A stretch of DNA of 64,000 nucleotides, the filler included, from Porpidia crustulata (Eukaryota), in NCBI GenBank assembly GCA_964255105.1. It is 5 parts of 5 records of this genome, joined end to end, with 100 filler letters (N's around TTAATTAATTAA, not from the genome) between each part and the next. Parts side by side here need not be neighbours in the genome. Positions count along the whole stretch, not along the records: positions 1 to 12,759 come from CAXUWE010000489.1; 4 more parts are not named here. One strand, given 5' to 3'. This document shows, in pieces, positions 1 to 51,881 of the stretch. Each line of letters opens with the position of its first letter. The stretch's first letter is position 1. The translations under genes and the position numbers were made by a program. The notes under the pieces are model-generated. The model made no database searches. It was not told the DNA's origin and worked only from the letters and a program-made list of their open reading frames with translations.

Positions 1-3000
1 GGAAGATGGGGGGGGGGCTTACGGTTCCCATAAAGGCTGTGGGGACGACGATGGCGTTGGGGTTGGCCGGCGCGTCGATGCTGCGGATGCGGTTGCCCAT
101 TTCGCCGCGCGGGATCTCGCTGGTGACTTCGAGCCGGCTGCGGTCGCTGGCGGTGACGCCGTTGATGTTGCGGTTCAGGATCATCAGGTTGCCCTCGGCG
201 TCGCTTTCGAGGTACACGTCTTCGGCGATGTCGGCGACGGCGGTGCTCCATACTGTCTGATAATGGCGTGCGACCTCGTCGAGGGTGTCTGGGAGGCCGG
301 CGGTGCCGCGCTTGTATTCGATGACGGAGATGCTTTTCATGAGGTCGGCGATGGCGATGGTATTGCCTCTGACGGCGATGTCGATGGGGGCGGTGGAGGT
401 GCGGTAAGAGGCTTGCTTTTGTAGGGTCTTGTCCGTGAGGGAGTAGATCACCACCTGAACACAATGTTAGTTGAGGTTTCGAAATAGGCGGGCGGAATGG
501 GGACGTACGGTCTTGACCAGCGCTGCAACGATGTTCCCATCTACTACTCCTATGGCTCGACAAGCTCCTTTCAGCGTAAGTTCCGCAACCAGCCGAAGTT
601 TCCGTTCTTGACCGACTGCAAAGACGAGAATCCTCCCACGAATGCTTTCGTCCTTTTTGTCTACATCGTCGAGGTATGCAGTGCCAACAACGAATCTTTC
701 TACGAGAGAACCGGATTCCTCACGAAGATCTGCCCTACAGACACTCTCGACAAGCTCTTCTACTTTCAATTCGTATGTGTCAAGCTCTTTGAACAGGACC
801 TCATCCGCCAGCTTGAAATGACTTTGTACAATTTCGTTGCCATATCTCAGTGTTCGTCGAATCGTGCCCATTCCGAAAGCTTTGAGGTTGGGTGAGTACT
901 GCACCCTTCGAACGGTCTCGTGTACGGATAAAGTCTGCACGTGGGTGGTGCGCTCGGTATCAACCAGAGCAAGTCTGAGATCTTGGTCTGTAGAAATGGC
1001 TATTGCTTCCGGATACGCTTCGGAGTCGAAAGGACACACGCAGGACGCCTTTTCGGCGGTGATGGCAGAGTATATAATCCTCCCTTCCAGCCCGTATATT
1101 AAGCTTGGATGTTCGCACGTTGCAAAAACACTGAAGAGGCCATCACTTTTCGGTAGAGCCTTGAATTTAGCTTGTTCTGTGCCGAGTACCATGGCTTTCC
1201 TTGATGATAGGGTAGCATTGGTGGTATTGTAAGAGAATGTTATAACCTCTCCATTAGCCATTGCTATGAATAGAGTGGGTGGCTGATCTAAAAGAATCTG
1301 GGTGAGAAGTATGGAACGTGGTATAGTGATGTCGTCCTCGTTCATGGTGATGCTTCGAATAATTTCCATTGTGTCTATCTTGAACACTACGACTGCTGCG
1401 CTTTGCCAGAAACCAGCGATACATACATCAGTGAAAATCGTAGGCACATGAATACATGCGACTTGGCCCTCATCCGTGAAGTTCCTTCGTGCCTTGACCT
1501 GAAGATTCTCGGCGAGATCCAGAATGACGGCCTCAGAGCCTCCAATCGACAAGGCAAGCCTTTGGTCATTGGCTGATGCCGCTGTGATACTGAGCCCAGT
1601 AGGAGACGACCATTCCGATATCAACATCCCATTCTCCGGGTCGACGATGCGGGCTGACGATGGAGTCACTTGAAGTAGGTGATTGCTTGGAAGGTTGGAG
1701 GCAAAGAGAGTGCTTTCTGATGATGATAAGCCCTTATATTCGGCTACCTCTTCAACTTCTCCATCTGCGTCAAATCGAAATACTCTGGTTTCATCGACAA
1801 ACGAAGCAAGAAGCAGATCCATGTACTGAGACTCGCTAGTGGATCGAATTCCAAAGAGATCGATTATATGTTCCATTTCTCCCAAAAGCCCCTGCTCTTC
1901 TAAGCCAACTCCGCTTCGAACACTTCGAAGGCTACCGTCTTGGAACGCTCCAGAGCCAGTGACTACCCGTGCCTGTCCGGAAGAAAATTCATTTGTTTGT
2001 GATTCACCTGCTCGGTGCCCCATGTCCATGATGGTAAAGTCCAAAATGGGCGCAATGTTCGGGAGCGTTTGCACTACTTCAAACTCCTTTTCCAGTACCC
2101 TGATAACTTTTGAATCACCTTGGTGAGATCCAACGAAGACGTGGCCGTTATCCAGATATACCAGAACCGACGCTCGAGAAGTGTGGCCGATCAAATCGAG
2201 CTTCCAACCCACAACTTCATCATCTTCCCCTAGTAGGAGCATCAGGAAGTACAATTTCCCGTAATCATCACCTAAGAGCCAGCGTTGCGCATCAATTTGC
2301 TCCCAAGCCACAAAAAGGGATGCTTCCTCAAGGGGTTCTATTAAGGTGTGACCAGAAACCTCGTCGAGATAGGCAATCGATGTCTCTGCAAGAATGAGGA
2401 GGCCATCTGTAGTTGTAAGCGCACACTCGGGTGATTAAAATCGCTTCGTACATACAAGCTGGCGCTGGTACGGGTATCAAATGACTGGCCCCTAGTTCCA
2501 GATCATTACGAGCATCGAGGACTTCCTCAAGGCTTGCATCGCCTTGCTCCCCGCTGCCACCTGCAGAATAGTCTAGTATCCTAATGCTAAGACAAACCTT
2601 TCTAAGATTATCTTCATAGAGGAAAGCAAGCTTGGTTCTTCGCTTATCCTTGCCACCACGCCAATGTACAAAAGCCGAGGATCGCACGGAGAGGTCAGGA
2701 ATCCTAGTCGCGACGGGATCACCCAGAAATCCTGCTGGAGGGTTTCCTTTCTTCTTTCCTGGTTGCGATATCGGGATTACTGTAACAATCCCATCGTACA
2801 GTTGCAGGGCCAAGAATTGCTTCGAAGGATCGACCAAACACCGATCAAAAGTTTGCGAGTCCCTAGATGTCTTATCTGCTGCATCAGTATACCTGGTCTC
2901 CGTACGTAATTGACGCAGATTCTCGTCCCAAGACACAGTAAAGTACTTATACTGGTCGGTACCGATAAAAAGGTGCTCGGTCGGAGAGTTTGCGGGCTGC

Positions 3001-3255
3001 AACTTCTCGAGCATGAGGACCTTGCCGTAAATGGATCGGGCGTGAGATAACACGAGGCCATCAATAGTCTGACTGTATATTTCCAAGCGGTTGGCTTTCC
3101 TGTAAACAATAAATATTATGGATCTGATCTCTCGATCATGGAGGATCTTCGTGAACTCACGCTACAACCAAGCATTCGTCATCTGGTGTGAGCAATCTCA
3201 GCTTGATTGCATGCCGTATGCTGCTAGACCGATGTATGGGAGCCAAATAAGCCAT
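1..3255 (-). CDS. DDB1: DNA damage-binding protein 1 (DDB1, CUL4 adaptor), multi-exon, 3' end cut off by contig edge
   Basis: ATG at 3255 gives MAYLAPIHRSSSIRHAIKL. ORFs 2328..3086 and 467..2311 carry DDB1 motifs (YLDNGHVFVGSHQGDS, NIAPILDF, TGSGAFQDGSLRSVRSGVG, RFVVGTAY). Introns near 3100-3160, 2407-2456 and 455-507. The last visible exon has IAIADLMKSISVIEY and VARHYQTVWSTAV. Confidence 0.95.
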
Positions 3256-3800: not shown

Positions 3801-3891
3801 CACCTTGTTGAAGAAAAAAATGGAAATGGGTCTCGCATAATTTCGCCTGATTTATACCAAAGCCATTTCCATTTTTTTCTTCAACAAGGTG
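3801..3891. mobile_element. 91-bp MITE-like element with perfect 29-bp terminal inverted repeats
   Basis: CACCTTGTTGAAGAAAAAAATGGAAATGG at 3801-3829 is the exact reverse complement of 3863-3891. CGT flanks both sides (3798-3800, 3892-3894), a possible 3-bp target-site duplication. Confidence 0.7.
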
Positions 3892-4334
3892 CGTGTCTAA
3901 CTTAAGATAAGTCTCGACGCTAGGGCTAGAAAACAACGTTATGTCAATGAATTAACAAGTTAACAACTGTTATTTTGTTATTCTTCTCTGTTCTTTAATC
4001 ATTTGTTAAGTAAGCAAAGAGTACTATTAGCGGCTTTTCGATTGCTAGATGAAGCGAGAATCGATATATGTTTTACTCGGCTAATCTAGACTACGGCCAG
4101 GTGGTTCGATGATTAGACAAGGATACTATCTCTATCCCTCTCAAGTCTGTGAGTGATAATTTCGTTGTTCAAGACCATACTCCTCTGCCAAGCTGAAAGC
4201 TCGAGTTCACCGCAAACGGGTCCGTTCTAGATCAACGGCTCCTTCCCAGACGAGCCGGATCATTCGTCGCTCGGGGTAGAGGGGGCTTTGGGGACCGTTT
4301 AGTGCTATGCTTATAAACGGCTCTATGGACGTAC

Positions 4335-4598
4335 CTATTCAGCCGCCAGAGGCTCAGCTGCATCGGCAACCCGCGGGTATGTCCCGTAGCTGGCGTACGA
4401 GCCATAAGAAGTTGGGGCTGGAGGTGGAGGCGGGTAGTTGTTGTACGTGCCGTAAGTGCCATACTGGCCATATGCTCCATAGTCGGCCGGGGCAGCCTCA
4501 GCTTCTCGTTTGTCGGTTCCAGTGGGAATGGGACTCGCAATGACCATTTGAGCCGAGGCGAATGCCAGTAGGGCGAGGAGGTTCTCAGTGATCTTCAT
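4335..4598 (-). CDS. Small secreted Kex2-processed Tyr-rich repeat peptide (87 aa); putative RiPP precursor
   Basis: MKITENLLALLAFASAQMVIA|SPIPTGTDKR-EAEAAP-ADYGAYGQYGTYGTYNNY-PPPPPAPTS-YGSYASYGTY-PR-VADAAEPLAAE*. It has a signal peptide, a KR site, X-A/X-P dipeptides and Tyr at every third residue, and lies divergent from a UstYa-like gene. Confidence 0.85.
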   Translation of the reverse strand: MKITENLLALLAFASAQMVIASPIPTGTDKREAEAAPADYGAYGQYGTYGTYNNYPPPPPAPTSYGSYASYGTYPRVADAAEPLAAE

Positions 4599-5615
4599 GA
4601 TGAGTATCGGGAAGTGAAGTAAGAATGGAGATTTCGAAGACGTAAGATAGACGCTTTCAATTTGTTGAAAGCTTCCAGCAGAGAAGAAGAAGAAGCCGAT
4701 CTTATAGAGAATGAAACGGGAGCTGGCGTTCTCACGGCTGCGGGGTATGACATACCGTCTCCTCTTGATGGCACATCCAATAAGTTTCAGGGAAGGCCTT
4801 AAACACTCAGGCTCCACGAGTCTTGCTGCCGAGTACGGACCCAACATGCTTCAAGATTATTGCAGGGTCGATGAGACAGCGCATGGGGCGATCGAGACAT
4901 CCTGGCTTTGAAGTATAAATGGCCAAATCCACGTTATAGAGGCATGCTGAGCGACTTGATCCTGACCTTGTGTTGTCAAGAAATATATTGATACGGATAC
5001 AAGCGTGCTACGCGCTCCCCTGGTGGTCCGACCTGGATGCGGTGCAGCTAGTTAGAAACGTTATATTCCAATTAGAGTGACGGATTAGCTAGCTGCCTAA
5101 AGTTAATCCATTGATTCTTATGCCGGAGAGAAGAATATCGCTAGCTCTATTAAGCTAGCCAACTTCTTGGTGCTTCTGAGAAGCAGCTGGGTACGTATAA
5201 GTAATCAATAATGGTTACCACTTAGTAACCAGCAGGTGCTGGGCCGAGAGCTTAAGGCACCCTCAAGTTATCATACTAAGCAAGGTAAGCAAGTACCCCG
5301 CTCTTCCTTCAGATGTGGGATGGCATGAGTGTATCGATGTTGCCCCGGGCAATCCGAGGATGTAAGGCATCTGGCTGAAGATGACTCTGCTTCTTGCATC
5401 GCCACCATGCATCTCTGTACCCGAAGATCGTCCCGTCCTGGTCACGAGAGGAGACAGGCAGCGATTGAATCGATTGAGCTACCAATGTGCTGGAGCCAAT
5501 CCCCAAACCATGTTCTTCGACATTGTTGCCTCATCTTTTCAATTTTCCCAAAATGCACTGGAATTACTAGTATCTACTCACCCTCCAAGTTGCCTGTTGA
5601 ACGCACTTTTCCACG

Positions 5616-6696
5616 ATGTTTGAATATCCTTGGAAGAAAAGCTTCAATTATAGTCATGTCTCACAGACAGGGGACTGCAAAGCATTCATCTCAGGATCAG
5701 ATAGCACAGAGACGCTAGATTCACCATCAAAGACCAGACCAACACGGTTCTACTTTTCTTTGCTCGTGACACTATTCCTGGCGATTACTTGTTTCCTTGG
5801 AGCATGGCTGGGCAGTCGCCGGGTCGCTGACTTGGCTTCGCTATGTACTGGACAGATTTCCCAATATTGTATGCCAAAGTCAATGATATTTATATCCAAT
5901 TGCTGATTCATATTTCAGCACCGTTTGTGAAGGACGTTGGCCTAAAATATGAGATCGTAGCTTTCAACGGCTCGTTGCTGAGAGAGAACGTATTCCGGCA
6001 GGATGCAGGGCCAGAGGTTGACGCAGCATGGACTTCCTTGGGCGTTGACTGTGAGCCCTCGCGATGACCGAATAGACCTCCTGGCTAATTATGCAATATT
6101 ACAGACAGAAGTGTGATCATACGATCTGATCAAGCGGAGAAGTCAGGCCTCTCTGAGATCCAAGTTCGATTGAATAATCGTTACGGGGGAGGTTATCCGG
6201 CCAATGTCGAAGGGCTACACCACTTACACTGCCTTGTAAGTTTCTTTGAGAACACCGCAACTCAATTTAACCTATCTACTCTTTAGAATCTTCTCCGGCA
6301 GTCGTTGTACTACAACTTCGATTACTACCATGAACGCGGCGAAGGCGCCTTCAAGAACACAGACGATATCCTGCGTTTCCACGTCTGTGAGTGCTTCACA
6401 TCTTTTCTTCCGCCGCTACCCCAATACATTGAGCAGGACGCTAACATGCTACAGCCCATTGTCTAGATATCATCCGCCAACAGCTGATGTGTACCGTGGA
6501 CGTTGGTATTCTCGGCCAAGTATGGTGGGACAAGGAACAGCCCAAAGCTTATCCTGATTTCAATACCAAGCACAAATGCAGGAATTTTAACGCGGTGCGG
6601 CAATGGGCAGAAGAGCATCAAGCGCCTGTAGATGTGCCGTTGGATTATCTGAGGCCGCCGATCAGTGCTGAAGCTGTTTATGGCAGTATACCTTGA
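5616..6696 (+). CDS. UstYa/DUF3328-family oxidase with N-terminal membrane anchor, 5 exons
   Basis: Splicing introns 5869-5918, 6051-6104, 6236-6286 and 6387-6454 gives one frame: TM segment FYFSLLVTLFLAITCFLGAWLG, then FNGSLLRENVFRQDAGPEVDAAWTSLG, ANVEGLHHLHCLNLLRQSLY, RFHVSHCLDIIRQQLMCTVDVG and DFNTKHKCRNFNAVRQWA. Two HxxHC motifs and the LMCxxD motif are typical of DUF3328. Confidence 0.93.
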
Positions 6697-8677: not shown

Positions 8678-10075
8678 TTATGATACTGTTTTACTCTTCT
8701 CCTCGTCCCCTGAATGGGCGCCTTCTTCGTCATCAGTCCCCCGATCCGTCTCCCACTCAACCCCTTCCTCGTCGTCTTCCTCAGTCCCTTCCTCGCTGTC
8801 CTCCGAGTCCGTAGGATCATCGTTGTGACCTGGCATTGACATATGCCTAGGGTTAGAATCCCCAGGAATGATCCGAGGAGCACTCATAGCGTTCAGCCAC
8901 TCTTCGTGGGTCATGTCCGAGATGAGGTCGGGGGCTGTCTCGCCAGGTGCGATGGAGAGTTGCTCGTCGTATGTGTCGTATGCTTGCGGATCCTGTTATG
9001 TCTCAGTACGCGCGTTCCCAGAAAAGTCGCAAGCATCCGCTTACGTCTTGATCGATCCATGACTTTCGTTGCCAGGGCTCCTCGCGCATAGCGTTCAGAA
9101 GCTTACTAGTCTCGGTTTCGGTTTCTTTGCCATTTGCGTCTGCATCGTCGACTTCCGTGGATTTGACAGACATGTTTACTGCTTTGGCCTCGGGTTCCTC
9201 CTCGCCGTTCTCGGTAGCACGTTGTGCGCGGGCTGGTTTCTCGAAGTCGATGAGAGCATCAAGGTGGGAGAAATGTGGACGAAGTTGGACGATAGCATCG
9301 ACCTTGTTGAGGTACAAGTTCTCTACGAAAGTTGTAAGTGCCATACAACTGCTAGCTCCCTGAAATGAATATCTTGTGTCAATAACTCACTTCCTTTAAA
9401 AACTCCAATGTAATAATTCGGATCTTTGCCCTCTTTGAAAGGGATAATTTGTCCGCCTAGGGTGATCTTATTCATGACATGTCCCTTGTTGTTCGCGTCA
9501 TCGAAATTTTCCAGAAGAGATTCTTGCGTTGGCCCTTCTATCGACGGTTTTTGACTATCTTTTGCTGCAGAACGAGGCTTTGAGCCAATACCAAACCCTC
9601 CAGCCATGCCGTAAGATCCACCCTCTCTTAGAACACGGCTCTTCCGCATCGCCTCTCCGTAGATGATGCCCTTCTCCTTATTGAAATTATGGTGGACGTC
9701 CATAGGAATATCAACCTCCACGAGGCCACATTTGGGCTTGATACGAAATTCTAGAGGTTTCTGTCCAGTTCTGTTGGAATAAGGTTGGTCGGGATCTCGA
9801 TTTGGATATTGAAGGATCATGACCTTCATAGTAGGTGTATTTATGTACATATCGTACTCGGCAGCGACATCATTACTTTCCTTATCAATTTCCCCATGAT
9901 ATCGATGTGCGTTTTTGGTCAGGTCTAATAAACTCATTGGAAAGTCCTCCACGTCGTTGGCAGGGAGAGCTTGTAGCTGAGCCTGCACAGAGTCTTGCCT
10001 CTCATCGATAGGGGTATGTGTCCAATCTGGGGTGGGTAATGGAGGATGTGCCATGCTAGACTTCTCAGACGCCAT
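8678..10075 (-). CDS. RPC37: RNA polymerase III subunit Rpc37/RPC5 (Sin-like N domain), 3 exons
   Basis: Motifs LQYPNR, EFRIKPKCGLVEVDIP, ITLGGQI, NYYIGVFKG and VDAIVQLRPHFSHLDA. ORFs 9323..10075, 9003..9344 and 8678..8914 join through introns near 9390 and 9044. Acidic C-terminal tail. Confidence 0.85.
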
Positions 10076-10541
10076 TTCGGACGCTGGAAGAGAAGTCTGC
10101 CTAGCAGCACCCTTGGTACGTGCCTCTCTTTCCTCTCAGGAGCTTTTATTTATCTTTGCAGCTGAGACAGGCGATATTGGCTTGATCTCTCAAGCGATAT
10201 TTTATGTTCACGCCGCGCTGCCTCTCTTACTCCAGTACTAATATTGACGTCCTCGGCACCCTTGTCCTTCTAATAACGATGCATAGCTAAGTGGACTGAT
10301 CTTGAATTAGAGAATGTACATAGGGTACCATGGTAAGATTCACACCGGAAGGTCTGGCGGTAAGCAAGGTTGAAATGTGAAGTTGTTGATCTCGAAAGTG
10401 AGGTCAAATAATTAATTGTTCGCGTCGTTAACGGCAATTGCGTCATTCCCGCAACTTTAAATATAAGCGCTTCTCACACTCATTGTAGGGCTGAGATATA
10501 GACTGAGCTTCTCTTAACTATGGACCCTGGAGATCTTCACA

Positions 10542-12449
10542 ATGTCACTGCCCGGCCTTCAACTTTCTACCCCAGTGGAGGTAGGGGTCGTACCAAATAT
10601 TCATAATGTCAAGCCAGGTACTGAATGGAGATTCGAGGTCGCTTTTGGTACAAATGTAGAGTTGAAGGTAAGTTATCTATTGAATTTTGCAGTGAGAAGG
10701 GATGGCGCATTTTGATGCTTTCTCCCTCTCTTTGCATTTTTGCCCTATTCTTCTCGATTTTTTCTCTAATTTCTTATCCTCCTTCCTTCCACTTTTGCTC
10801 GTTCTTTCCATCCTCCTTCTCATTCTACTTCTTGTTTTTGTCCTTTTATCTTTCCCTTCTTCTTTTCCTTCTTTTCCTCGCCTGCAGTCCACTTTCTCTC
10901 TCTTCGTCTTCTTCCCCCTGTTCTTCTTCTTCCTCTCTTTCTCCCATTCGAATGACCCGACCTTGTAATAGTTCTTCCTTTCTTACGCTTATATACCTGC
11001 TTATTCACTTCTTTTCTGCCTACTTGATTCGAAGCACTCGATTTTGGTAGCTATGTCTGGACTCTACTCACAGTTGCTATTTTTACACAGCTTCTTTCCG
11101 GTAACGCAGAGCTTTTTGGCACAGAACTCGCCCAAAAACAAACCTATGTATTCACGGGGATCAAGGCAGCAATATTCACATGGCATGGTTGCCTCCTCGA
11201 GGTCTCAGGGGATGTCCAGGTCGAATACCTTGCTGAAGAGACACCTATGATCAGCTACGCAAACTTGCACTTTGCGCTGGAGAAAATAAGAGACCAGAAT
11301 TTACTGGATGAAAGAGATGGTCCCCGAGTGCTGGTCGTTGGACCGGAAAATGCAGGAAAGACTAGCTTAGTCAAGCTTCTCACTGCCTACGCTACGAGAT
11401 CTGGTCGACAACCTATTACTGTGAACCTTGATACCAAGGAAGGCATGTTAAGCGTTCCCGGAACTTTATCTTCAGCGGTCTTTTCCTCAATCATCGATGT
11501 GGAAGAAGGCTGGGGAAGCAGTCCGACCAACGGACCGAGCCAGGTCCCCGTAAAGCTACCATTAGTGTACTACTATGGACAAGCGAATCCGGATGATAAT
11601 GTACAGACATTCAAGCCTATGGTAACGAGGCTCGCGCTCTCTGTGATGAGTAAGTTACAAGAGGACACAGAGGTAAAGGAAGCAGGGTGTATCGTGGATA
11701 CGCCGGGTGTTATTAGTCAAGGAAAGGGAGGGTATGAGATTATTCAGCATATTGTTTCCGAATTCTCAAGTAAGCTCCAGGCAGTATTGTATCCACCTGG
11801 ACTCGTTGGTGACCTTTTCTTAGTCAATATAGTGATCATCCTCGGCTCTGAACGCCTCTACAGCGACATGGCGCGTCGCTTCAAGGAACAAAACACTGGT
11901 AGCGGCGAGAAGATATCTGTTATTAAACTGGACAAGTCTGGCGGCTGCGTCGACCGAGACGAAGAGTATCAACGACAATATCGTCAAGCGCAAGTCCGGG
12001 AATACTTCTTTGGCGACAGCAGAAGCACTCTGAGCCCTCATACTCAACAGGTCGACTTCAACCAACTGACTATCTACAAGATCGCCGAATGTAAGTTCAT
12101 CAACTCCCAACTTCACCCCCTGTACAGCACTAATGAAACCACCCCAGCCTCCGACCTCCTCAACTCACTACTCCCCGGCGGTGAAGCCGACGATGCTTCA
12201 TCCGCGATTTTCGATCAGGTACAGCCATCGCCGCAAATGCAGAATTCAATCCTTGCCATCGTGCAGGCAGACCCCAACGACACACAGGAAAATATCCGCG
12301 ACGCTAGTGTAATTGGGTTCATTTACGTCGCCGAAGTCGACGAGAAGAGGAAGAAAGTGAAGGTCTTGGCGCCTTTGAGCGGGAGGCTGCCGCACAAGGC
12401 CATGATATGGGGGACGTGGCCGGAAGGCGTTGGGGACTTGGTTGGATGA
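10542..12449 (+). CDS. CLP1: mRNA cleavage and polyadenylation factor / polynucleotide kinase Clp1
   Basis: Exon 1 MSLPGLQL...EWRFEVAFG. Long intron ~10668-11090. P-loop GPENAGKTSL, plus VKLPLVYYYG, KLDKSGGCVDRD and GFIYVAEVDEKRKKVKVLAP. Further introns at 11770-11823 and 12091-12147. Confidence 0.95.
10715..11020 (+). repeat. Pyrimidine-rich (CT/CTT) low-complexity tract inside CLP1 intron 1
   Basis: About 300 bp dominated by T and C on the + strand; it produces the F/S/L-rich and K/R/E-rich spurious ORFs. Confidence 0.8.
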
Positions 12450-25103: not shown

Positions 25104-25618
25104 GTGGGATTTCTGGGCAGTGTTTTGGGGGAAAGAAGGAGGGGGGTGGAGGCATGGAGGCGATTTGGTATTTTCGACCACGACAAGTCTTGGTGGAGAA
25201 AAGGGGCATTGGGATGGCGTTGAGCACCCCGGAAATCACCGGAATCTGCCTACACCACATGACATCCTCCACCAAGAATCTGGGCGCCAGGAACAGACGG
25301 GAATGATATTATTTGTAGATACGATACCCCACATAATTTTATAACATACGCTGCTTTGGAACTCGTCGTCCCGTCGCTACGAACTCATTCTTCCGTCTTG
25401 GTGAGACTGCGGCCTTCTTTGATTCTTAAAAGGGGGACGGTCGAGGTGTCTATTCGATGGGAGGAATTATTCGAGAGGGCGGTTAAGGGGGTGTTGATGT
25501 TTTTGAGTGTGTGGAAATTGGAGGAGAGGAAAGTGGAAGGAAGAGTAGAGAAAGAAGGAAGAAGAGGAGAGACGAGAAAAGAGGAGATGAAATGAGAGAA
25601 GATAGAGGAGATGGAATG

Positions 25619-41432: not shown

Positions 41433-43476
41433 TTAATTTACACTATCGACAGGGTAATGTGATGCTCCTCTAATTTGCCGTCTTGGTTTGATGCTACGTT
41501 CGCTATAAGATTATGTCAGCTGAAAGTTGCTTTAGTGTCAAGGACATACTAACTCTTTAGAGTAATAAGTCTCGACAGGCGAGTAGGAGCTGGTACTATG
41601 AGTAGACGAAGCCGTGAAGGCTTTTTTGGAGTGATAAGGTTGTTCGCCTGTATTCACAGTACCGTTGTACATTGCGCTGGAGACAATTAGACTGGGTGGT
41701 TTCCAGTATATAATGAAGAAGGGTCTTACCCATGACCATCAGTGGGAATCTGGGTCACTGCACCGGTCAAATCCAGGGGATTATCAACGTTACCACCAGC
41801 ATTGCCAGCAATTGCCATACCATATGCTCGACAGTTCTCAAGATGGTTTTCAGGAATCTTTAGATCCTTAAGGTGATCTGGAGCTTCAATCATAGTTGCC
41901 ACCAAGCCAGATGAGACGTGCCATTCGATGTGGCAATGGAATGACCAGACTCCTGGATTGCTCGCTTGAAATCGAATTACAGCGTAACCATTTGGGTTCA
42001 CCATAATGGTGTCCCTTCGGACCGGGATGCTGGATAAGTTGGCGGCGTAAGTACCGAAAGCTCCAGCCTGGGGAGGAGATCTCTCAATGACTTGGAAGTT
42101 ATGTCCGTGAAGGTGCCATGGATGCAGATTATTATGATCTGTATTGACGTTGTTGATAACAATCTCGACTACTTCGTTGTACTTCAGGACAAAAGGGTTG
42201 ACTTGACCATACACTATGGGATTGGAGGAATATTCATTACCGACAGTGAGAGCCGTGTAGAGGGATGGGACCTTCTGCATCAGATATGTGACATCATTTA
42301 TAATCGCCCTAGAAACATCAGTCATAGGTCTTCCTTTGAAAATTATAGGACTTACCTGTTGACTCCACTAAGATTTGCAAAACCAGTGTTTACGGTGATG
42401 TGATGATCGACTTGACTCAGGAGGGGCTGATGGTCGTATGGGACAAGATACATTTCGTCAAAGAAATCAAAACCCTGTATATCGACAGGAGGTGGAAGGG
42501 GTTTCTTGTCGTCGTAAACAAGCCATGCCGTGATATTGGGATTGTATCCTGGGGGCGGGATACCTTTTGGTGGGAACATCATGTTGATATCCAAAGTGGC
42601 AAAAATGGCGAAGTTCTTGTCGGTGCTATTCTTGGTGTCGATAAGAAAACTCCATCGCTGTCCCGTAGCAATGCGGATATTTTGAGATCCGATGTACCTT
42701 GGCTCGACGTACACTCCATCAATTTCGACAGCTGTGAACGGATGCCCATCAAAGTAAATGGCGTGACCGGCGAAATTACCAATATTGACGATGTGAACCA
42801 AATAAGTTTTTCCAGGCTTGACGGGAATCGAGACGTTTTGGCCGTCGTTGATGAGACCACTGTCCGCATCGGGTTCTAGGCCACCCCTGACGTTTTCGTC
42901 TGTAGTCGACTCATAGTAATTAAGGAGGTTTGGCATCTGCTCATGGTACCAATCCGAGAGTGTCATCGTGATCTCCTCATCGAATTTGCCAGCATACGGC
43001 GCCTTGCTATCGTGAACAACGATTGGACCGCGTAGGCCATCTCCCATTTGGCCCATATTATGCGAATGATACCAGTAAGTGCCGGGTTGGTTTATCTATA
43101 CCCACGTTAGAATGCTCCTCGATGGCAGGATACAGCCATTGCCTACCTCAAAATCATACTTGAAGCGGCCACCTGGGGGAATAGGGCACTGCCCGACTCC
43201 AGAAGCTCCATCCATTGTAGAACTGCCTGTTTGGAAGATTCCATGCCAATGGAGAGTAGTGGACTGGTTTCCCAAAGCATTATGGACATTGACAACAACC
43301 CTGTCCCCCATATCGACATCTATCTGGGGGCATGGCCATTGCCCGTTGATACCAATAACAGGCCTAGCAAACCCATCAGGGCTCGCCGTAACCCATGTGA
43401 TGTCCCAGTTGTAGGTTACAGTCTTGGAAAAAGATATACTGGCAAAGCTAAAAAGGAGAAGAACAAGCACATACAT
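41433..43476 (-). CDS. Secreted multicopper oxidase, Fet3/ferroxidase-like, multi-exon (3' exons tentative)
   Basis: Signal peptide; four Cu-binding motifs TTLHWHG, TYWYHSH, HPWHLHGH and WSFHCHIEWHVSSGL. ORFs 43096..43476, 42352..43056 and 41726..42325, plus short downstream exons. Confidence 0.92.
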
Positions 43477-46448
43477 CGTGGCCGGGTTGTACAGTGTCGA
43501 GATACGGTTGAGGCAACCTTTCGAAGGAGGGATAAGACAGTATATACATGAACGAACAAGCTAATTTGTAACGACTTGATGTATACGGACATCCCCGAGC
43601 GATGAATCGGCATGATGGCGATATTCCAAGGTCACAGCCGAACCAGACACCGCCTTGAGGAGAGAGATTCATCTGGACTGCTGAAATTCAAGGAGAAAGT
43701 CAAGGAGGAAAGTCTACGGTCTGCACGATTCTGCACTTAGACCAAGACCCATTCTCAAGGTGGCAATAAGCGATGTGGAAGCAGCTTGTCAATACGACCG
43801 AAGTATGCATAATTTGAACGAGCATGAACCTCGGATGACCTGTGCACGAGGTCGGCCCTGTAGCAAATGAACGTAAGAATATGAATTAGGTTAAAGTGAG
43901 CATAGAGCTGCAGTAGGATGGAGATGCGGTACGGCTATTGCTTGGTGGATGTGGTTTATGGGACTGCTTTGATTCCGAGTCGCAGCAACGACCCATTGCA
44001 TGTAAGACTCCCCAGAAACGGAGTATTCGTAAGCATTCCTTGAGAAAGCGGAATATGTATGTATGGATCTTTGATCGTAGCTATACGGTAAGACTTGAAG
44101 AGATGACAGTTGTTGGCGGTGTGAACTATCATTCTCCTCACGAATACATACCTATCGTACTACCTTTCGTCTTCATGTAAGAAGTCGACTTGCGGTGAGC
44201 GCCACCATAGACACGCGATTTCGGTTATAGTTTTGGGTTTCTCCAGCGCTAGCCAGGTCGGGTAAAGCACAAGCCACGCTGTCTGGACTTTGTACAACGT
44301 CAACCCCAATCAAGGAAGGTTTTGCCATCGTGATGAGCTTTATCAGATCCACCAGACCTGTTGTTCATCTTTCGTTCAATAGTAGCCTGTATCAAATAAA
44401 TGACCATATGAATTTCAATCTGTCGAATTCTTCAGTAGTTGGCATAACTGGCCGAGACCTGCATTACGGCGTCGCATATACCTGATTACTGGATTCTACT
44501 AGATCAGCCAGTCATTGAAGTCATCAGCTCGATCTAGGGAACAATGAAGCGCGTAGAAATCAACGATCTCCGGAAAGAGTTCTAGCTAGAATGTCATCAC
44601 CTTAAGCTTCAAGTCATCGTACTTTCTCTGAGGGTAAAAACAACCACATTAATGACTCGAATATGCCTCATTTCAGCAACTTATGACCTCGGTATAAATC
44701 CTGGTCTTGGCCTTCACCCCATGAAACAAACCAGTCGGTGGAGTGTGACTTGTCCAGTTCGTCGGACGTCCTCGCCTATGATCTTTGTCAAGCGGAGAAA
44801 TAGATCAAGCTGATTGCAAGTCGATGATGCCTACTAATACATCCTGAAGAACCCATACCATCAAATGTTATTGCTTACGCCTCCATTGACTTCGCTGATA
44901 GCTTTCCGATTGATCCAGAAGTAACGCGCTGATATTCCGGATTTTGTGGGGTTGTTAACTCATTATAATCTAGCTTCAGATAGCCTGCCACCAGATTTGG
45001 TTCAGCCTCATTGAGAACAGTGATGGGTATCGGTACCTCATCATGAATCTCGGAACAGATACTAGATAGCTGGAACCTGACGCACTTTGAAGCCGTGCGT
45101 AGACCCGGCCTTAAGGTAGCTTGTCCAACTTTCACGTGAGTTCGGGCGCGAATACCTACACTATGATAGCTGCATATAGAACCCGAGTGTATGGCGAAAA
45201 CACTCGGTTGGATTGTCCTCGCTCGAAAGACAGAAGAGCCTTGTGCTGGTAATCCCGTAGTAATTTGCTTTGCGATTCATGCACAATAAAGACAATCTGA
45301 CCCATATCAATCTTGTGAACAAGCTTAGCTTATTAGTTTTAAGCAAAACATTACTTAATAATCTTCATAGATATAAGTTCTTGGAACGTTTACCTTCATA
45401 ATGTGGAAGTGGACCCTGAATTCTTTACGGGGCTCGGGTGAGTTGGTCAGCCATCCGGATCATCTCCTCGGTTTCAACGGACGTGACAGGTTAGAAATCT
45501 CAATTACTCACGGAAGCAGTAGAAATAGCTTGGCTACCTGACGAGAAGAAGCACGGAGCGGTATCGCGCATTACCGAAACCCGAAATGATTGCCATAAAA
45601 CAACGCTTGAGAAGCAAACAATTCCAACGGGTAGTAGACGATGTGTCTACTATTGCAAGGTAGATTGCATAGCCATAAGGTAGTCATAGAAATATAAATA
45701 TGCGCGTGTGAATTAGTCATGATTATGACGAAAACCAAATATAAATTTGAAGTGAGTGTAATGAAAATCAGTATAGATGAGATATCAATAGCAAGCGTTT
45801 CCAGGACTGAAGATTCAGTGATAGGACTGGTGATGAGGATATGGAAAATAGCTGGTAATAAAGAATCATGATACCTTTGATATTTCAACTAAATTGGGAT
45901 CTCATCATATTGACTAAATTGAGTCGTACAATTCTCTGTAGCCAAGGAGCAAAGGGTCGCCAACTCTCGTTATTACACACCGTAAAAACGATCAGCTCGT
46001 ATGTCAGCACAGTAAATACATGATCAAGATCGTCGGCCTTTTTTTTCTTGGTTGCATACATTGTCGAAATTTAAGGAGTAAGGATGTGCGGAACGGACTT
46101 GAGTGCAGATCTGGAACGCTTCCGCGATGACGCCACATACGAAGATTTGAAATGCGAGGCGCCTTCCCGGTGAGGCTGAGGTTAGTCTATCAAATCTGGT
46201 GCCCCCCTAAACAGGAGCTTCTTCACATTGTTGACGGTCTGAGGAGTTAAGGGAATCGTTCAAGGAGTGGATATTTTAATGATTAATCAAATGTCACGCT
46301 CATTACACCGTCACCTCGCGTCAACCGGTGGAATCGGTTGTTGAGTCTCAGAGCTCCATCTTGCATCCACAGATAAACAGGGACTCCAGTGTCAGCGCGT
46401 TGCATTGCAAGCTGATAGAGGTAAACAAAGGCTTTTTACAACACCACA

Positions 46449-51321: not shown

Positions 51322-51421
51322 NNNNNNNNNNNNNNNNNNNNNNNNNNNNNNNNNNNNNNNNNNNNTTAATTAATTAANNNNNNNNNNNNNNNNNNNNNNN
51401 NNNNNNNNNNNNNNNNNNNNN
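51322..51421. other. Assembly spacer
   Basis: 100-bp N spacer with TTAATTAATTAA. Confidence 0.99.
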
Positions 51422-51881
51422 TTTCTTTCGCTCTAGATCAGCTCCTTGTAGAAACTTTGATTGTAGTATATCTGAAAGACGTCGAACGAACTCATATGAC
51501 CAGTTTTTACCTGGCTGTTTTCCAGATATAGTATATGCAAAAACACGAATCATGGCATTGGGAAGAGGTATACCACGTTCGGTAAGCTTGTTGATATAGT
51601 GAATAAGCTCTTTTTCTTGTTGGTTCGAAAGAATTGACGTCGTTTGCTTGCTTTCCTTCACGGAGGCGGTTATACCCCTATGTCGTCGCGACAGCGTGCT
51701 TCGATTGATATTGAATTTCTTTGCAGTTGCAGTGTAATTAGGTGACTCTTGCAAAGCTAGATCTGCAAGCGCTGCCGCAATTGCAGCCATATTGAATTTC
51801 TAATTGATTTTTGAAGAAAGATGAAAGTAGTAAAGTGGGGTGTGCACGGGACCGGAACGTGCACGGGCCCGGGAATACTCC
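51422..51881 (-). mobile_element. 5' end of a Fot1/pogo-type (Tc1-mariner superfamily) DNA transposon with transposase N-terminus (ORF from 51790)
   Basis: psq-like HTH (NYTATAKKFNINRSTLSRRHRG) and CENP-B-like HTH (LSNQQEKELIHYINKLTERGIP...PGKNWSYEFVRR). Putative terminal repeat at 51842-51881 with two CCCGTGCAC direct repeats, next to a TA at 51882-51883. Confidence 0.88.

Follow-up and report, generated by a model that had tools for sequence, protein, structure and literature searches.

We analyzed a small gene and the adjoining UstYa (DUF3328) gene in a 64,000-nucleotide stretch of DNA from Porpidia crustulata (GenBank assembly GCA_964255105.1; five parts of five records joined end to end), which is hereafter called the window. 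The small gene is predicted to encode a peptide with ten Tyr residues arranged in two ladders, in each of which Tyr recurs at every third residue. Comparison with relatives showed that its product is a genuine, conserved secretory pre-pro-peptide of 87 amino acids (aa), as predicted from sequence, and that the gene is divergently paired with an intact UstYa gene. These results support a Tyr peptide that would be processed by Kex2- and Ste13-type proteases and linked to a UstYa enzyme. The peptide is probably the substrate of the adjacent UstYa, and we give about even chances to the fuller reading, in which a dikaritin-like, Kex2/Ste13-processed, single-copy precursor has its ladder oxidized by that enzyme. 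A polycyclic ladder as the final product is put forward as a hypothesis by analogy with known systems.

The original prediction had quoted a mature peptide of 39 aa with 10 Tyr in i,i+3 ladders of six and four, split by a polyproline stretch, and this was exact on the minus strand. Positions 4371–4487 (minus strand) translate to ADYGAYGQYGTYGTYNNYPPPPPAPTSYGSYASYGTYPR, which agrees with the quoted peptide in every letter. This core is part of an intronless, uninterrupted open reading frame (ORF) at 4335–4598 (minus strand) that comprises 87 codons and a stop codon (4335–4337). The precursor consists of a signal peptide, KR, an EA-EA-AP spacer, the core, PR at the core end, and an acidic tail, and its sequence is MKITENLLALLAFASAQMVIASPIPTGTDKR-EAEAAP-[core]-VADAAEPLAAE. 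The core Tyr are residues 40, 43, 46, 49, 52, and 55 (first run of six) and residues 65, 68, 71, and 74 (second run of four) of the precursor, with successive gaps of 3, 3, 3, 3, 3, 10, 3, 3, and 3. When the 39 core residues were shuffled 200,000 times, the observed eight gaps of three never arose, and the best shuffle gave seven. Tandem Repeats Finder (minimum score, 30) detected no DNA tandem repeat in 4300–4650, and the ladder codons were mixed (TAT and TAC for Tyr; GGA, GGC, and GGG for Gly). Therefore, the periodicity appears to be kept at the protein level and not to derive from recent slippage, and a recent DNA repeat was rejected as the origin of the ladder. No second ladder of at least four Tyr was found in any frame of the window; a single chance match with three Tyr was present at 25315–25335.

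An in-frame ATG is located upstream, at 4847, and the public ORF call P0140 uses it to give a 170-aa ORF. This start was rejected: the extension (4599–4847, minus strand) is not conserved. Met at 4598 is the likely start because the homologues begin there. In an AlphaFold2 model of the precursor, the only long helix covered residues 2–20, corresponding to the signal peptide, and the core was without regular secondary structure, with predicted local distance difference test scores (pLDDT) of 55–68 by block. A core modelled as disordered in this way would suit a flexible enzyme substrate and an extended structural peptide equally well. No Pfam family reached its cut-off with the window precursor, and the best-scoring look-alike in the ESM Atlas (0.77) was below the level where matches carry meaning.

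A single-sequence search retrieved four relatives of the precursor with 97%, 58%, 51%, and 77% (partial) identity, one of which is annotated in the lichenized fungus Xylographa trunciseda. A first profile search against 1.84 billion representatives retrieved 71 proteins at E ≤ 1e-3, including 25 at E ≤ 1e-10, and a second search with a 22-member profile against a 5.8-billion-cluster set retrieved 93 proteins. Named members occur in five Xylographa species, Endocarpon, Exophiala, Aspergillus californicus, Hymenoscyphus, Glarea, Acephala, Amylocarpus, Colletotrichum, Apiospora, Purpureocillium, Coniochaeta, Truncatella, Lasiosphaeria, Rachicladosporium, Cladosporium, Ascochyta, Neodidymelliopsis, and Venturia. 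The family thus extends over many genera of filamentous ascomycetes; lineage look-ups placed Xylographa in Lecanoromycetes and Amylocarpus in Leotiomycetes. A chance ORF or low-complexity artefact could be suspected from the shortness and biased composition of the precursor and from its lack of a Pfam family. However, the homologues with 97%, 58%, and 51% identity keep the start, signal peptide, cleavage sites, and ladder, the two profile searches were productive, the neighboring gene is conserved, and no shuffle reproduced the ladder. A chance ORF was thus ruled out by the conserved homologues, and the probability that remains for an artefact of either kind is negligible.

By eye, the family follows a common grammar: a signal peptide, which is kept in the aligned homologues; an Ala/Pro/Glu spacer; a ladder of the form [D/G/N]-Y-G-x-Y-G-x-Y; a Pro linker such as PPPPP, PPAGG, or PAPKGG; a second ladder; and KR or RR. 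The whole unit often occurs two to four times, and relatives with repeated cores include P0212 (three), P0141 (three), and P0142 (three to four). For family statistics, we used 133 proteins, namely the window protein and all single-sequence, profile, and cluster matches, a set that includes weak matches and one chimeric model and excludes P0002 (97% identical) and P0140. In this set, 1,162 of 1,544 Tyr–Tyr gaps were equal to three; the +1 position was Gly in 880 of these 1,162, and the +2 position was mostly Ser, Lys, Thr, Asn, or Asp. Ladders hold 2–8 Tyr, and the linker has at least two Pro in 96 of 114 ladder–linker–ladder–dibasic units. Whether the Tyr spacing is conserved in homologues had been set beforehand as a check on the original prediction, and it is. 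In an alignment of the single-sequence matches (A1), ladder Tyr accounted for 7 of the 16 invariant columns, and length differences within the ladders were of 3 or 6 residues. In an alignment of 22 sequences (A2), the 10 core Tyr columns showed a mean identity to the window of 0.90 versus 0.47 for the other 29 columns. These two alignments are less circular support for the spacing than the family-wide gap count. Six relatives searched against Pfam also reached no cut-off; their weak matches to glycine-rich protein (GRP) and PARP families were compositional, and PF07172 (plant glycine-rich) was found below threshold in two of the six (17–18 bits; cut-off, 30) and gave no match for the window protein.

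Family members also vary at their C-terminal ends. A conserved amphipathic tail follows the last Y-K/R-R in many of them (AIDFVKRLWS, ALGYLVKRLWS, AVDWVKDIFV, or AVGDFMRKIFG; examples are P0212 [residues 196–209], P0209, P0210, P0147, P0170, P0222, and P0233). A regular expression found this tail in 22 of 57 members that end within 16 aa past the site, and the rest, the window protein included, end in an acidic stretch of Ala, Glu, and Pro. Perhaps the amphipathic tail serves in recognition or sorting and was lost in the lineage of the window. In P0182 (539 aa), an Acyl_transf_3 domain (Pfam) is fused to a C-terminal ladder core with an amphipathic tail; this is most likely a merged gene call and not a natural fusion. 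The Xylographa models P0004, P0118, P0119, and P0144 diverge abruptly inside the last repeat, and only P0212 has the conserved tail. Several Xylographa database models probably have wrong 3′ ends, and the true Xylographa precursors are likely to carry two or three repeats.

The original prediction also envisaged a propeptide of the secretory pathway in which KR and an X-Ala/X-Pro spacer precede the core and a further putative cleavage site closes it, and comparison with the family supports this. Across the 133 proteins, the two residues that follow a ladder were KR in 91 cases, RR in 19, PR in 9, KE in 10, and KK in 4; otherwise, a Pro-rich linker opens. We examined 79 spacers, each of them flanked by [KR]R on one side and by a ladder with three or more Tyr on the other. 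An unbroken in-register run of X-Ala/X-Pro dipeptides ending no more than two residues before the first ladder Tyr was present in 47 of the 79 spacers versus 3 of the 79 in register +1, and the mean run was 3.6 dipeptides in register versus 0.25 when shifted. The longest runs had 12–14 dipeptides (Xylographa, P0146, and P0204), and KR-EA-EA-AP-AD-Y of the window conforms to the same pattern. At the level of sequence, such in-register spacers are a signature of Ste13-type trimming. XA/XP repeats cleaved by STE13 are described for Kex2-processed repeat proteins (KEPs) in PMC7329392.

The window core has KR on its N-terminal side and PR on its C-terminal side, at a position where the aligned relatives have KR or RR. 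Kex2 is able to cut after Pro-Arg, and Kex1 trims basic residues. Y-P-R occurs nine times in the family, and X-Ala/X-Pro dipeptides then run on in P0176 (twice), P0179, P0234, P0235, and P0262. Since PR is trailed there by the dipeptides of a KR-type spacer, it appears to be used as a cleavage site equivalent to KR. The calculated monoisotopic masses of the predicted linear peptide are 3993.696 for A38–Y74 and 4090.749 for A38–P75; with the terminal Arg retained (A38–R76), the value is 4246.850.

The UstYa gene was derived as a five-exon model encoding 285 aa. Each of the four introns has GT..AG borders, splicing leaves a frame free of internal stops, and exons 2–5 matched Pfam PF11807 in colinear order (profile positions 56–89, 95–137, 138–165, and 168–220 of 220; exon 5, E = 6.7e-22). 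The annotated UstYa orthologues of Xylographa run straight across the derived splice junctions. Two HxxHC motifs are present, and Cys 218 and 247 of the window UstYa are C-terminal to them. The assumption that an intact DUF3328/UstYa partner adjoins the precursor, at a distance of 1,017 bp, was thus confirmed, and the pairing recurs in relatives as described below. We infer that the two genes share a promoter in 4599–5615.

DUF3328 proteins are described as having a cytosolic disordered N-terminus, one transmembrane (TM) helix, and a lumenal helical domain, and as residing in Golgi, endosome, and vacuole membranes (PMC12435403). According to the same source, they act as dimers joined by disulfide bonds, hold a two-copper centre at HxxHC(x)nHxxHC, and depend on O2 and a supply of electrons, and the cyclase AprY does likewise (PMC12435403); the class is copper- and O2-dependent (PMC12435403, PMC12186524). 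An AlphaFold2 model of the X. parallela orthologue (mean pLDDT 59.8, moderate confidence; residues 1–40 below pLDDT 50) had a helix at 46–72 (pLDDT 75–94) and motif-bearing helices at 165–188 and 200–218. This predicted model reproduces the published architecture of a disordered N-terminus, one TM helix, and lumenal helices. A sequence search of the PDB with the UstYa profile gave no matches and hence no solved relative. A complex prediction that combined two copies of the X. parallela UstYa lumenal domain with the C-terminal portion (last repeat plus tail) of the precursor from the same species (score 0.01, mark 0.34) counts neither way.

A search with exon 5 among longer proteins identified 112 UstYa proteins at E ≤ 1e-8 among 123 candidates, mostly of ca. 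280–290 aa and 55–86% identical over the exon. The orthogroup is present in Lecanoromycetes, Leotiomycetes (Sclerotinia, Botrytis, Hyaloscypha, Blumeria, and Podosphaera), Dothideomycetes, and Eurotiomycetes. In an alignment of 38 UstYa proteins (A3), identity to the X. parallela protein was 45–93%; H171, C172, H205, H208, and C209 (P0122 numbering) were invariant, and H168 was nearly so. The window UstYa showed 65.6% identity to the X. trunciseda orthologue (285 columns) and 49–54% identity to the orthologues of Sclerotinia, Aspergillus, Hyaloscypha, and Amylocarpus. The orthogroup also occurs in the powdery mildews Blumeria graminis (P0099) and Podosphaera aphanis (P0049), with 59–66% identity over the last exon, and a Tyr-ladder precursor was not among the sequences retrieved from these two species. 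Powdery mildews are poor in secondary metabolism.

The precursor and UstYa genes carry adjacent locus tags in X. trunciseda (MMC11_005723 and MMC11_005724), X. soralifera (MMC17_003944 and MMC17_003943), X. bjoerkii (MMC18_000278 and MMC18_000277), X. parallela (MMC32_001887 and MMC32_001886), and X. vitiligo (MMC15_005600 and MMC15_005601), the precursor being given first in each pair. Both genes were also found on contigs of equal size in Amylocarpus encephaloides (72,057), Aspergillus californicus (141,816), and the pair P0143/P0006 (283,637). The pair was co-located in seven of the nine named species from which both proteins were retrieved. This linkage bears on the reading that the peptide is secreted unmodified, as a pheromone-like signal or a disordered "sticker," and that UstYa acts elsewhere, the adjacency reflecting shared regulation or chance. 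The processing grammar is indeed that of the alpha-factor-type KEPs, many of which yield linear peptides according to PMC7329392; in two species the genes are on different contigs, and many fungi that have the UstYa orthogroup yielded no precursor in the searches. On the other hand, the two genes are adjacent in the window and in five Xylographa species and, as judged from equal-sized contigs, in one helotialean and one eurotialean species. Selection acts on the Tyr positions, and ladder length and intervening residues drift, which suggests a chemical handle over a receptor epitope. In addition, the pheromone-type precursors surveyed in PMC7329392 are reported not to be accompanied by DUF3328 genes. 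An unmodified secreted peptide is therefore an improbable account of the locus.

Under our preferred reading, in which the peptide is a UstYa substrate, maturation would proceed as follows. The signal peptide would be removed, and a Kex2-type protease would then cut after KR31 and PR76. A Ste13-type dipeptidyl aminopeptidase would strip EA-EA-AP, and a Kex1-type carboxypeptidase may trim the Arg, giving a peptide of ca. 37–38 aa from A38 to Y74 or P75. The membrane-anchored, lumen-facing, two-copper UstYa would meet this peptide in the late secretory pathway, which is also the site of Kex2 action, and would oxidize the Tyr ladder. Successive ladder Tyr could be joined by repeated intramolecular ethers from Tyr-phenol-O to C-beta in the manner of AprY and asperipin-2a, and the outcome would be chains of fused cyclophane rings, up to five in the first ladder and three in the second. 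This ether topology, the mechanism that we favour by analogy, is the more doubtful part of the proposal, and we hold it to be less likely than not.

The analogy is drawn from asperipin-2a (AprA/AprY of Aspergillus flavus), which the locus resembles in having a secretory precursor, Kex2 sites, a Tyr-rich core, and a single UstYa gene without a tyrosinase (PMC6514808, PMC12186524, PMC12435403, PMC12048977). Asperipin-2a (FYYTGY) is described as bicyclic through ethers from Tyr side chains to beta-carbons and as needing the single DUF3328 enzyme AprY (PMC6514808), and one of its links is given as Tyr-O to Phe-C-beta (PMC12186524). The chemistry that the original prediction borrowed from asperipin-2a thus holds for the formation of Tyr-O to C-beta ethers by one DUF3328 enzyme; a YxxY span was assumed as well, and the one link that is named runs to Phe. 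The two systems differ in that asperipin has a 6-aa core in ca. 8-aa repeats and two rings, whereas the window has one 37–39 aa core with 10 Tyr at i,i+3, and no homologue of the AprR reductase or the AprT transporter was found near the window precursor. Asperipin-2a, too, is made without a tyrosinase or a peptidase. Its central Tyr would be both donor and acceptor, as a ladder requires.

With ustiloxin and phomopsin (UstA/PhomA), the locus shares a UstYa enzyme with two HxxHC motifs, a precursor with a signal peptide, predicted Kex2 processing, and Tyr as the residue through which cross-links are made or would be made. As described, the cores of those compounds are Y-x-I-x tetrapeptides in many repeats with a Tyr–Ile cross-link, and a tyrosinase and several DUF3328 genes are clustered with them; in contrast, a single DUF3328 gene and no tyrosinase were found in the window, and the precursor core is devoid of Ile. 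Of the features by which dikaritins are recognized, the locus shows the adjoining UstYa with two HxxHC motifs and the signal-peptide precursor, and it lacks repeated Kex2-separated cores and the accessory tyrosinase, methyltransferase, peptidase, or transporter of the older definition. As to flanking dibasic sites, its core has KR on the N-terminal side and PR on the C-terminal side. Yeast alpha-factor and other KEPs, as described, have a signal peptide and KR followed by X-Ala/X-Pro dipeptides, and the window shows the same grammar, with EA-EA-AP leading from KR up to the core. Alpha-factor is described as linear, W-rich, and not accompanied by DUF3328 genes (PMC7329392), and the single core of the window would fail the repeat-based definition of KEPs. 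Plant burpitides (BURP-domain) are ribosomal peptides that likewise gain Tyr-O to C-beta ethers, and side-chain cross-links akin to them, in copper-dependent reactions, and the four-His, two-copper arrangement of BURP is explicitly likened to that of DUF3328 (PMC12435403, PMC12186524). The BURP cyclases belong to an unrelated plant family, act on short cores, and have no sequence relation to the window proteins.

UstYa could also act on this peptide with another chemistry, namely beta-hydroxylation, desaturation to dehydro-Tyr, or halogenation, in place of ether rings. CctR is described as a hydroxylase and ApnU as a halogenase (PMC12435403), and phomopsin enzymes as installing dehydroamino acids. 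However, modification of single residues does not need a strict i,i+3 register, and Tyr-to-C-beta ethers are documented for the sole characterized system with one DUF3328 enzyme and no tyrosinase. We accordingly rate these other chemistries as having a low probability. Every known DUF3328 cyclization requires Tyr, according to PMC7329392.

The composition of the core suggests a further reading, in which the peptide is a structural or adhesive element, a Gly/Tyr/Pro-rich block of the wall or matrix that is cross-linked between molecules through Tyr by UstYa, a laccase, or a peroxidase. Such a peptide would take an extended, polyproline-II-like shape with Tyr on one face; a polyproline-II helix has three residues per turn, which places i,i+3 side chains on one face. 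The predominance of Gly at +1 (880 of 1,162 positions) and of Ser, Lys, Thr, Asn, and Asp at +2, the sub-threshold PF07172 matches in two relatives, and a core modelled without helix or strand are all consistent with this reading. It would also fit the housekeeping flanks and a UstYa orthogroup that keeps ca. 50% identity between classes and extends to Blumeria and Podosphaera, which points to a physiological role and not to a toxin. The peptide resembles plant extensins, glycine-rich wall proteins, and mussel foot proteins, which are secreted, Tyr/Gly/Pro-rich, and of low complexity and have oxidatively cross-linked Tyr; this likeness is one of composition and not homology. Extensin hallmarks are Ser-Pro(3–5) repeats and Y-x-Y cross-link motifs, and the window core has neither SPPPP nor Y-x-Y. 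Unlike extensins, moreover, the peptide is fungal, is paired with UstYa, and is predicted to be excised at Kex2/Ste13-type sites. Excision to units of ca. 4 kDa with the spacers discarded typifies secreted peptides and not wall polymers. The 87 aa contain no evident glycosylphosphatidylinositol (GPI) or wall-anchor signal, PF07172 stays below its cut-off, and the only multicopper oxidase gene of the window is 37 kb away (41729–43560). An extensin-like structural role had been offered earlier as the alternative; it gains some weight from the orthogroup that is conserved across classes and found in powdery mildews, and it loses weight from the missing extensin motifs. On balance, we regard the matrix reading as unlikely.

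Several observations weigh against oxidation of a dikaritin-like ladder by the neighboring UstYa. The core of 37–39 aa is several-fold longer than the dikaritin repeat units of 8–14 aa given in PMC7329392, the window precursor holds one core without repeats, and its C-terminal site is PR and not dibasic. Of the 79 spacers, 32 are not wholly in register, and in P0003 the run is broken by an LS dipeptide. The periodicity statistic is partly by construction, since the family was gathered with ladder-built profiles. As regards linkage, the five Xylographa species are one genus and roughly one independent observation; the shared contigs of Amylocarpus, A. californicus, and P0143/P0006 are assigned by equal size and not by coordinates; and the two genes are on separate contigs in Hymenoscyphus albidus (88,757 versus 52,979) and Acephala macrosclerotiorum (848,192 versus 455,426). 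The UstYa orthologues of four further Xylographaceae (X. pallens, X. opegraphella, X. carneopallida, and Ptychographa) and most of the 112 UstYa matches had no counterpart among the precursors retrieved. A period-3 Gly/Tyr pattern fits a structural role equally well. Finally, UstYa enzymes also hydroxylate, halogenate, and desaturate, and by analogy a cross-link would not be the sole possible outcome.

We scanned the whole window for domains (E ≤ 1e-5) in its 99 stop-to-stop ORFs that reach 110 aa. Domains of a tyrosinase, methyltransferase, transporter, or peptidase were not detected in any of these ORFs, and the sole UstYa gene in the window is the one beside the precursor. With no other tailoring domains in the window, the unit appears to consist of two genes. 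The coordinates of the features are given in Table 1.

Table 1 Features of the Tyr-ladder precursor, the adjoining UstYa gene, and other genes in the window.
Feature	Position	Strand	Basis or remark
Precursor coding sequence, 87 aa	4335–4598	−	ORF and translation; same start Met in homologues, which open with MKI(T/V)
Signal peptide MKITENLLALLAFASAQMVIAS, ca. residues 1–22, predicted cleavage point	4533–4598	−	Hydrophobic core read in the sequence; model helix 2–20
Lys30-Arg31, putative Kex2 site ahead of the spacer	4506–4511	−	Sequence; dibasic at the same position in P0003, P0004, and P0005
EA-EA-AP spacer, residues 32–37, three in-register X-Ala/X-Pro dipeptides, Ste13 type	4488–4505	−	Family register test
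Core including terminal Pro-Arg, residues 38–76	4371–4487	−	Translation
Tyr ladder 1, Y40–Y55, six Tyr at i,i+3, YGAYGQYGTYGTYNNY	4434–4481	−	Sequence
Pro-rich linker PPPPPAPTS, residues 56–64	4407–4433	−	Sequence
Tyr ladder 2, Y65–Y74, four Tyr at i,i+3, YGSYASYGTY	4377–4406	−	Sequence
Pro75-Arg76, putative non-canonical Kex2 site at the core end	4371–4376	−	Aligned homologues: KR or RR
Acidic C-terminal tail VADAAEPLAAE, residues 77–87	4338–4370	−	Sequence; acidic A/E/P tail type
Intergenic region, 1,017 bp, between the divergent precursor and UstYa genes	4599–5615		Gene coordinates
UstYa/DUF3328 gene, 285 aa (exons 5616–5868, 5919–6050, 6105–6235, 6287–6386, and 6455–6696)	5616–6696	+	Derived model
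Predicted single TM helix of UstYa, residues 47–65	5754–5810	+	Top Kyte-Doolittle 19-residue window, 2.24
First HxxHC motif, HHLHC, residues 167–171	6218–6232	+	Sequence
Second HxxHC motif, HVSHC, residues 204–208, interrupted by intron 4	6380–6386 + 6455–6462	+	Sequence
RSE1/DDB1/CPSF-A-type beta-propeller protein	2–3161	−	Flank, housekeeping
RPC5	9006–10135	−	Flank, housekeeping
Clp1	11028–12446	+	Flank, housekeeping
Three-domain multicopper oxidase (laccase-like), three ORF pieces: Cu-oxidase_3, Cu-oxidase, and Cu-oxidase_2	41729–43560	−	Pfam

The multicopper oxidase is a conceivable phenol coupler, although it is not clustered with the precursor. A 40-nt inverted repeat (3801–3840 and 3852–3891; 90% complementary; perfect arms of 29 nt, loop of 11 nt) is located ca. 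445 bp past the precursor stop, and its arm is unique within the window; it might form a hairpin within or beyond the 3′ untranslated region or represent a small foldback element. An ORF at 51377–51799 (minus strand) with an HTH_Tnp_Tc5 DNA-binding domain (E = 7e-7) is probably a transposon remnant.

No description of the precursor family was found in the literature searched by keyword and by motif string, and none of the matches listed for the motif string was fungal. The ladder motif was absent from the main text and three supplements of the KEP survey PMC7329392, and none of six accession strings, standing for five family members, occurred in its Table S2. The ladder family might overlap with the Y/D-rich types G-5/P-1 and G-6 of that survey, whose profiles are given as figures only. 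The Sclerotinia cluster survey PMC6941272 makes no mention of the locus of the UstYa orthologue. A survey of lichen genomes is described as having found UstYa genes to be widespread but as having identified precursors for neither of its two conserved cluster clans (PMC12048977). It was only in 2025 that UstYa/DUF3328 proteins were shown to be C-H activating enzymes that depend on two coppers and O2 (PMC12435403).

The orthogroup is conserved across classes, no other tailoring genes were found, and the flanks are housekeeping genes; therefore, a physiological role at the cell surface, in the matrix, or in signalling is more likely than that of a lineage-specific toxin. To our knowledge, very few natural substrates of UstYa/DUF3328 enzymes are known. 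With its two genes, the locus is a minimal unit, and its candidate substrate, in which Tyr stands at every third residue, is unusually explicit. The locus lends itself to asking if one copper enzyme can work along a ladder repeatedly and in register, and what fixes the ring size. In a broader and rather speculative proposal, which we consider unlikely as a whole, this would be an ancient system of filamentous ascomycetes in which one conserved two-copper UstYa closes (Y-G-x)n ladders step by step into fused rings through Tyr-O to C-beta ethers; the two ring chains, with at most five and three rings here, would be linked by a polyproline rod in a rigid, non-toxin ladder peptide of ca. 4 kDa. 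A physiological role of a ladder peptide would explain why the UstYa orthogroup persists even in powdery mildews. If the ring ladder is formed, the product would be far larger than any known dikaritin, and if the peptide is a conserved surface or signalling peptide and not a toxin, the known biological role of the UstYa family would widen.

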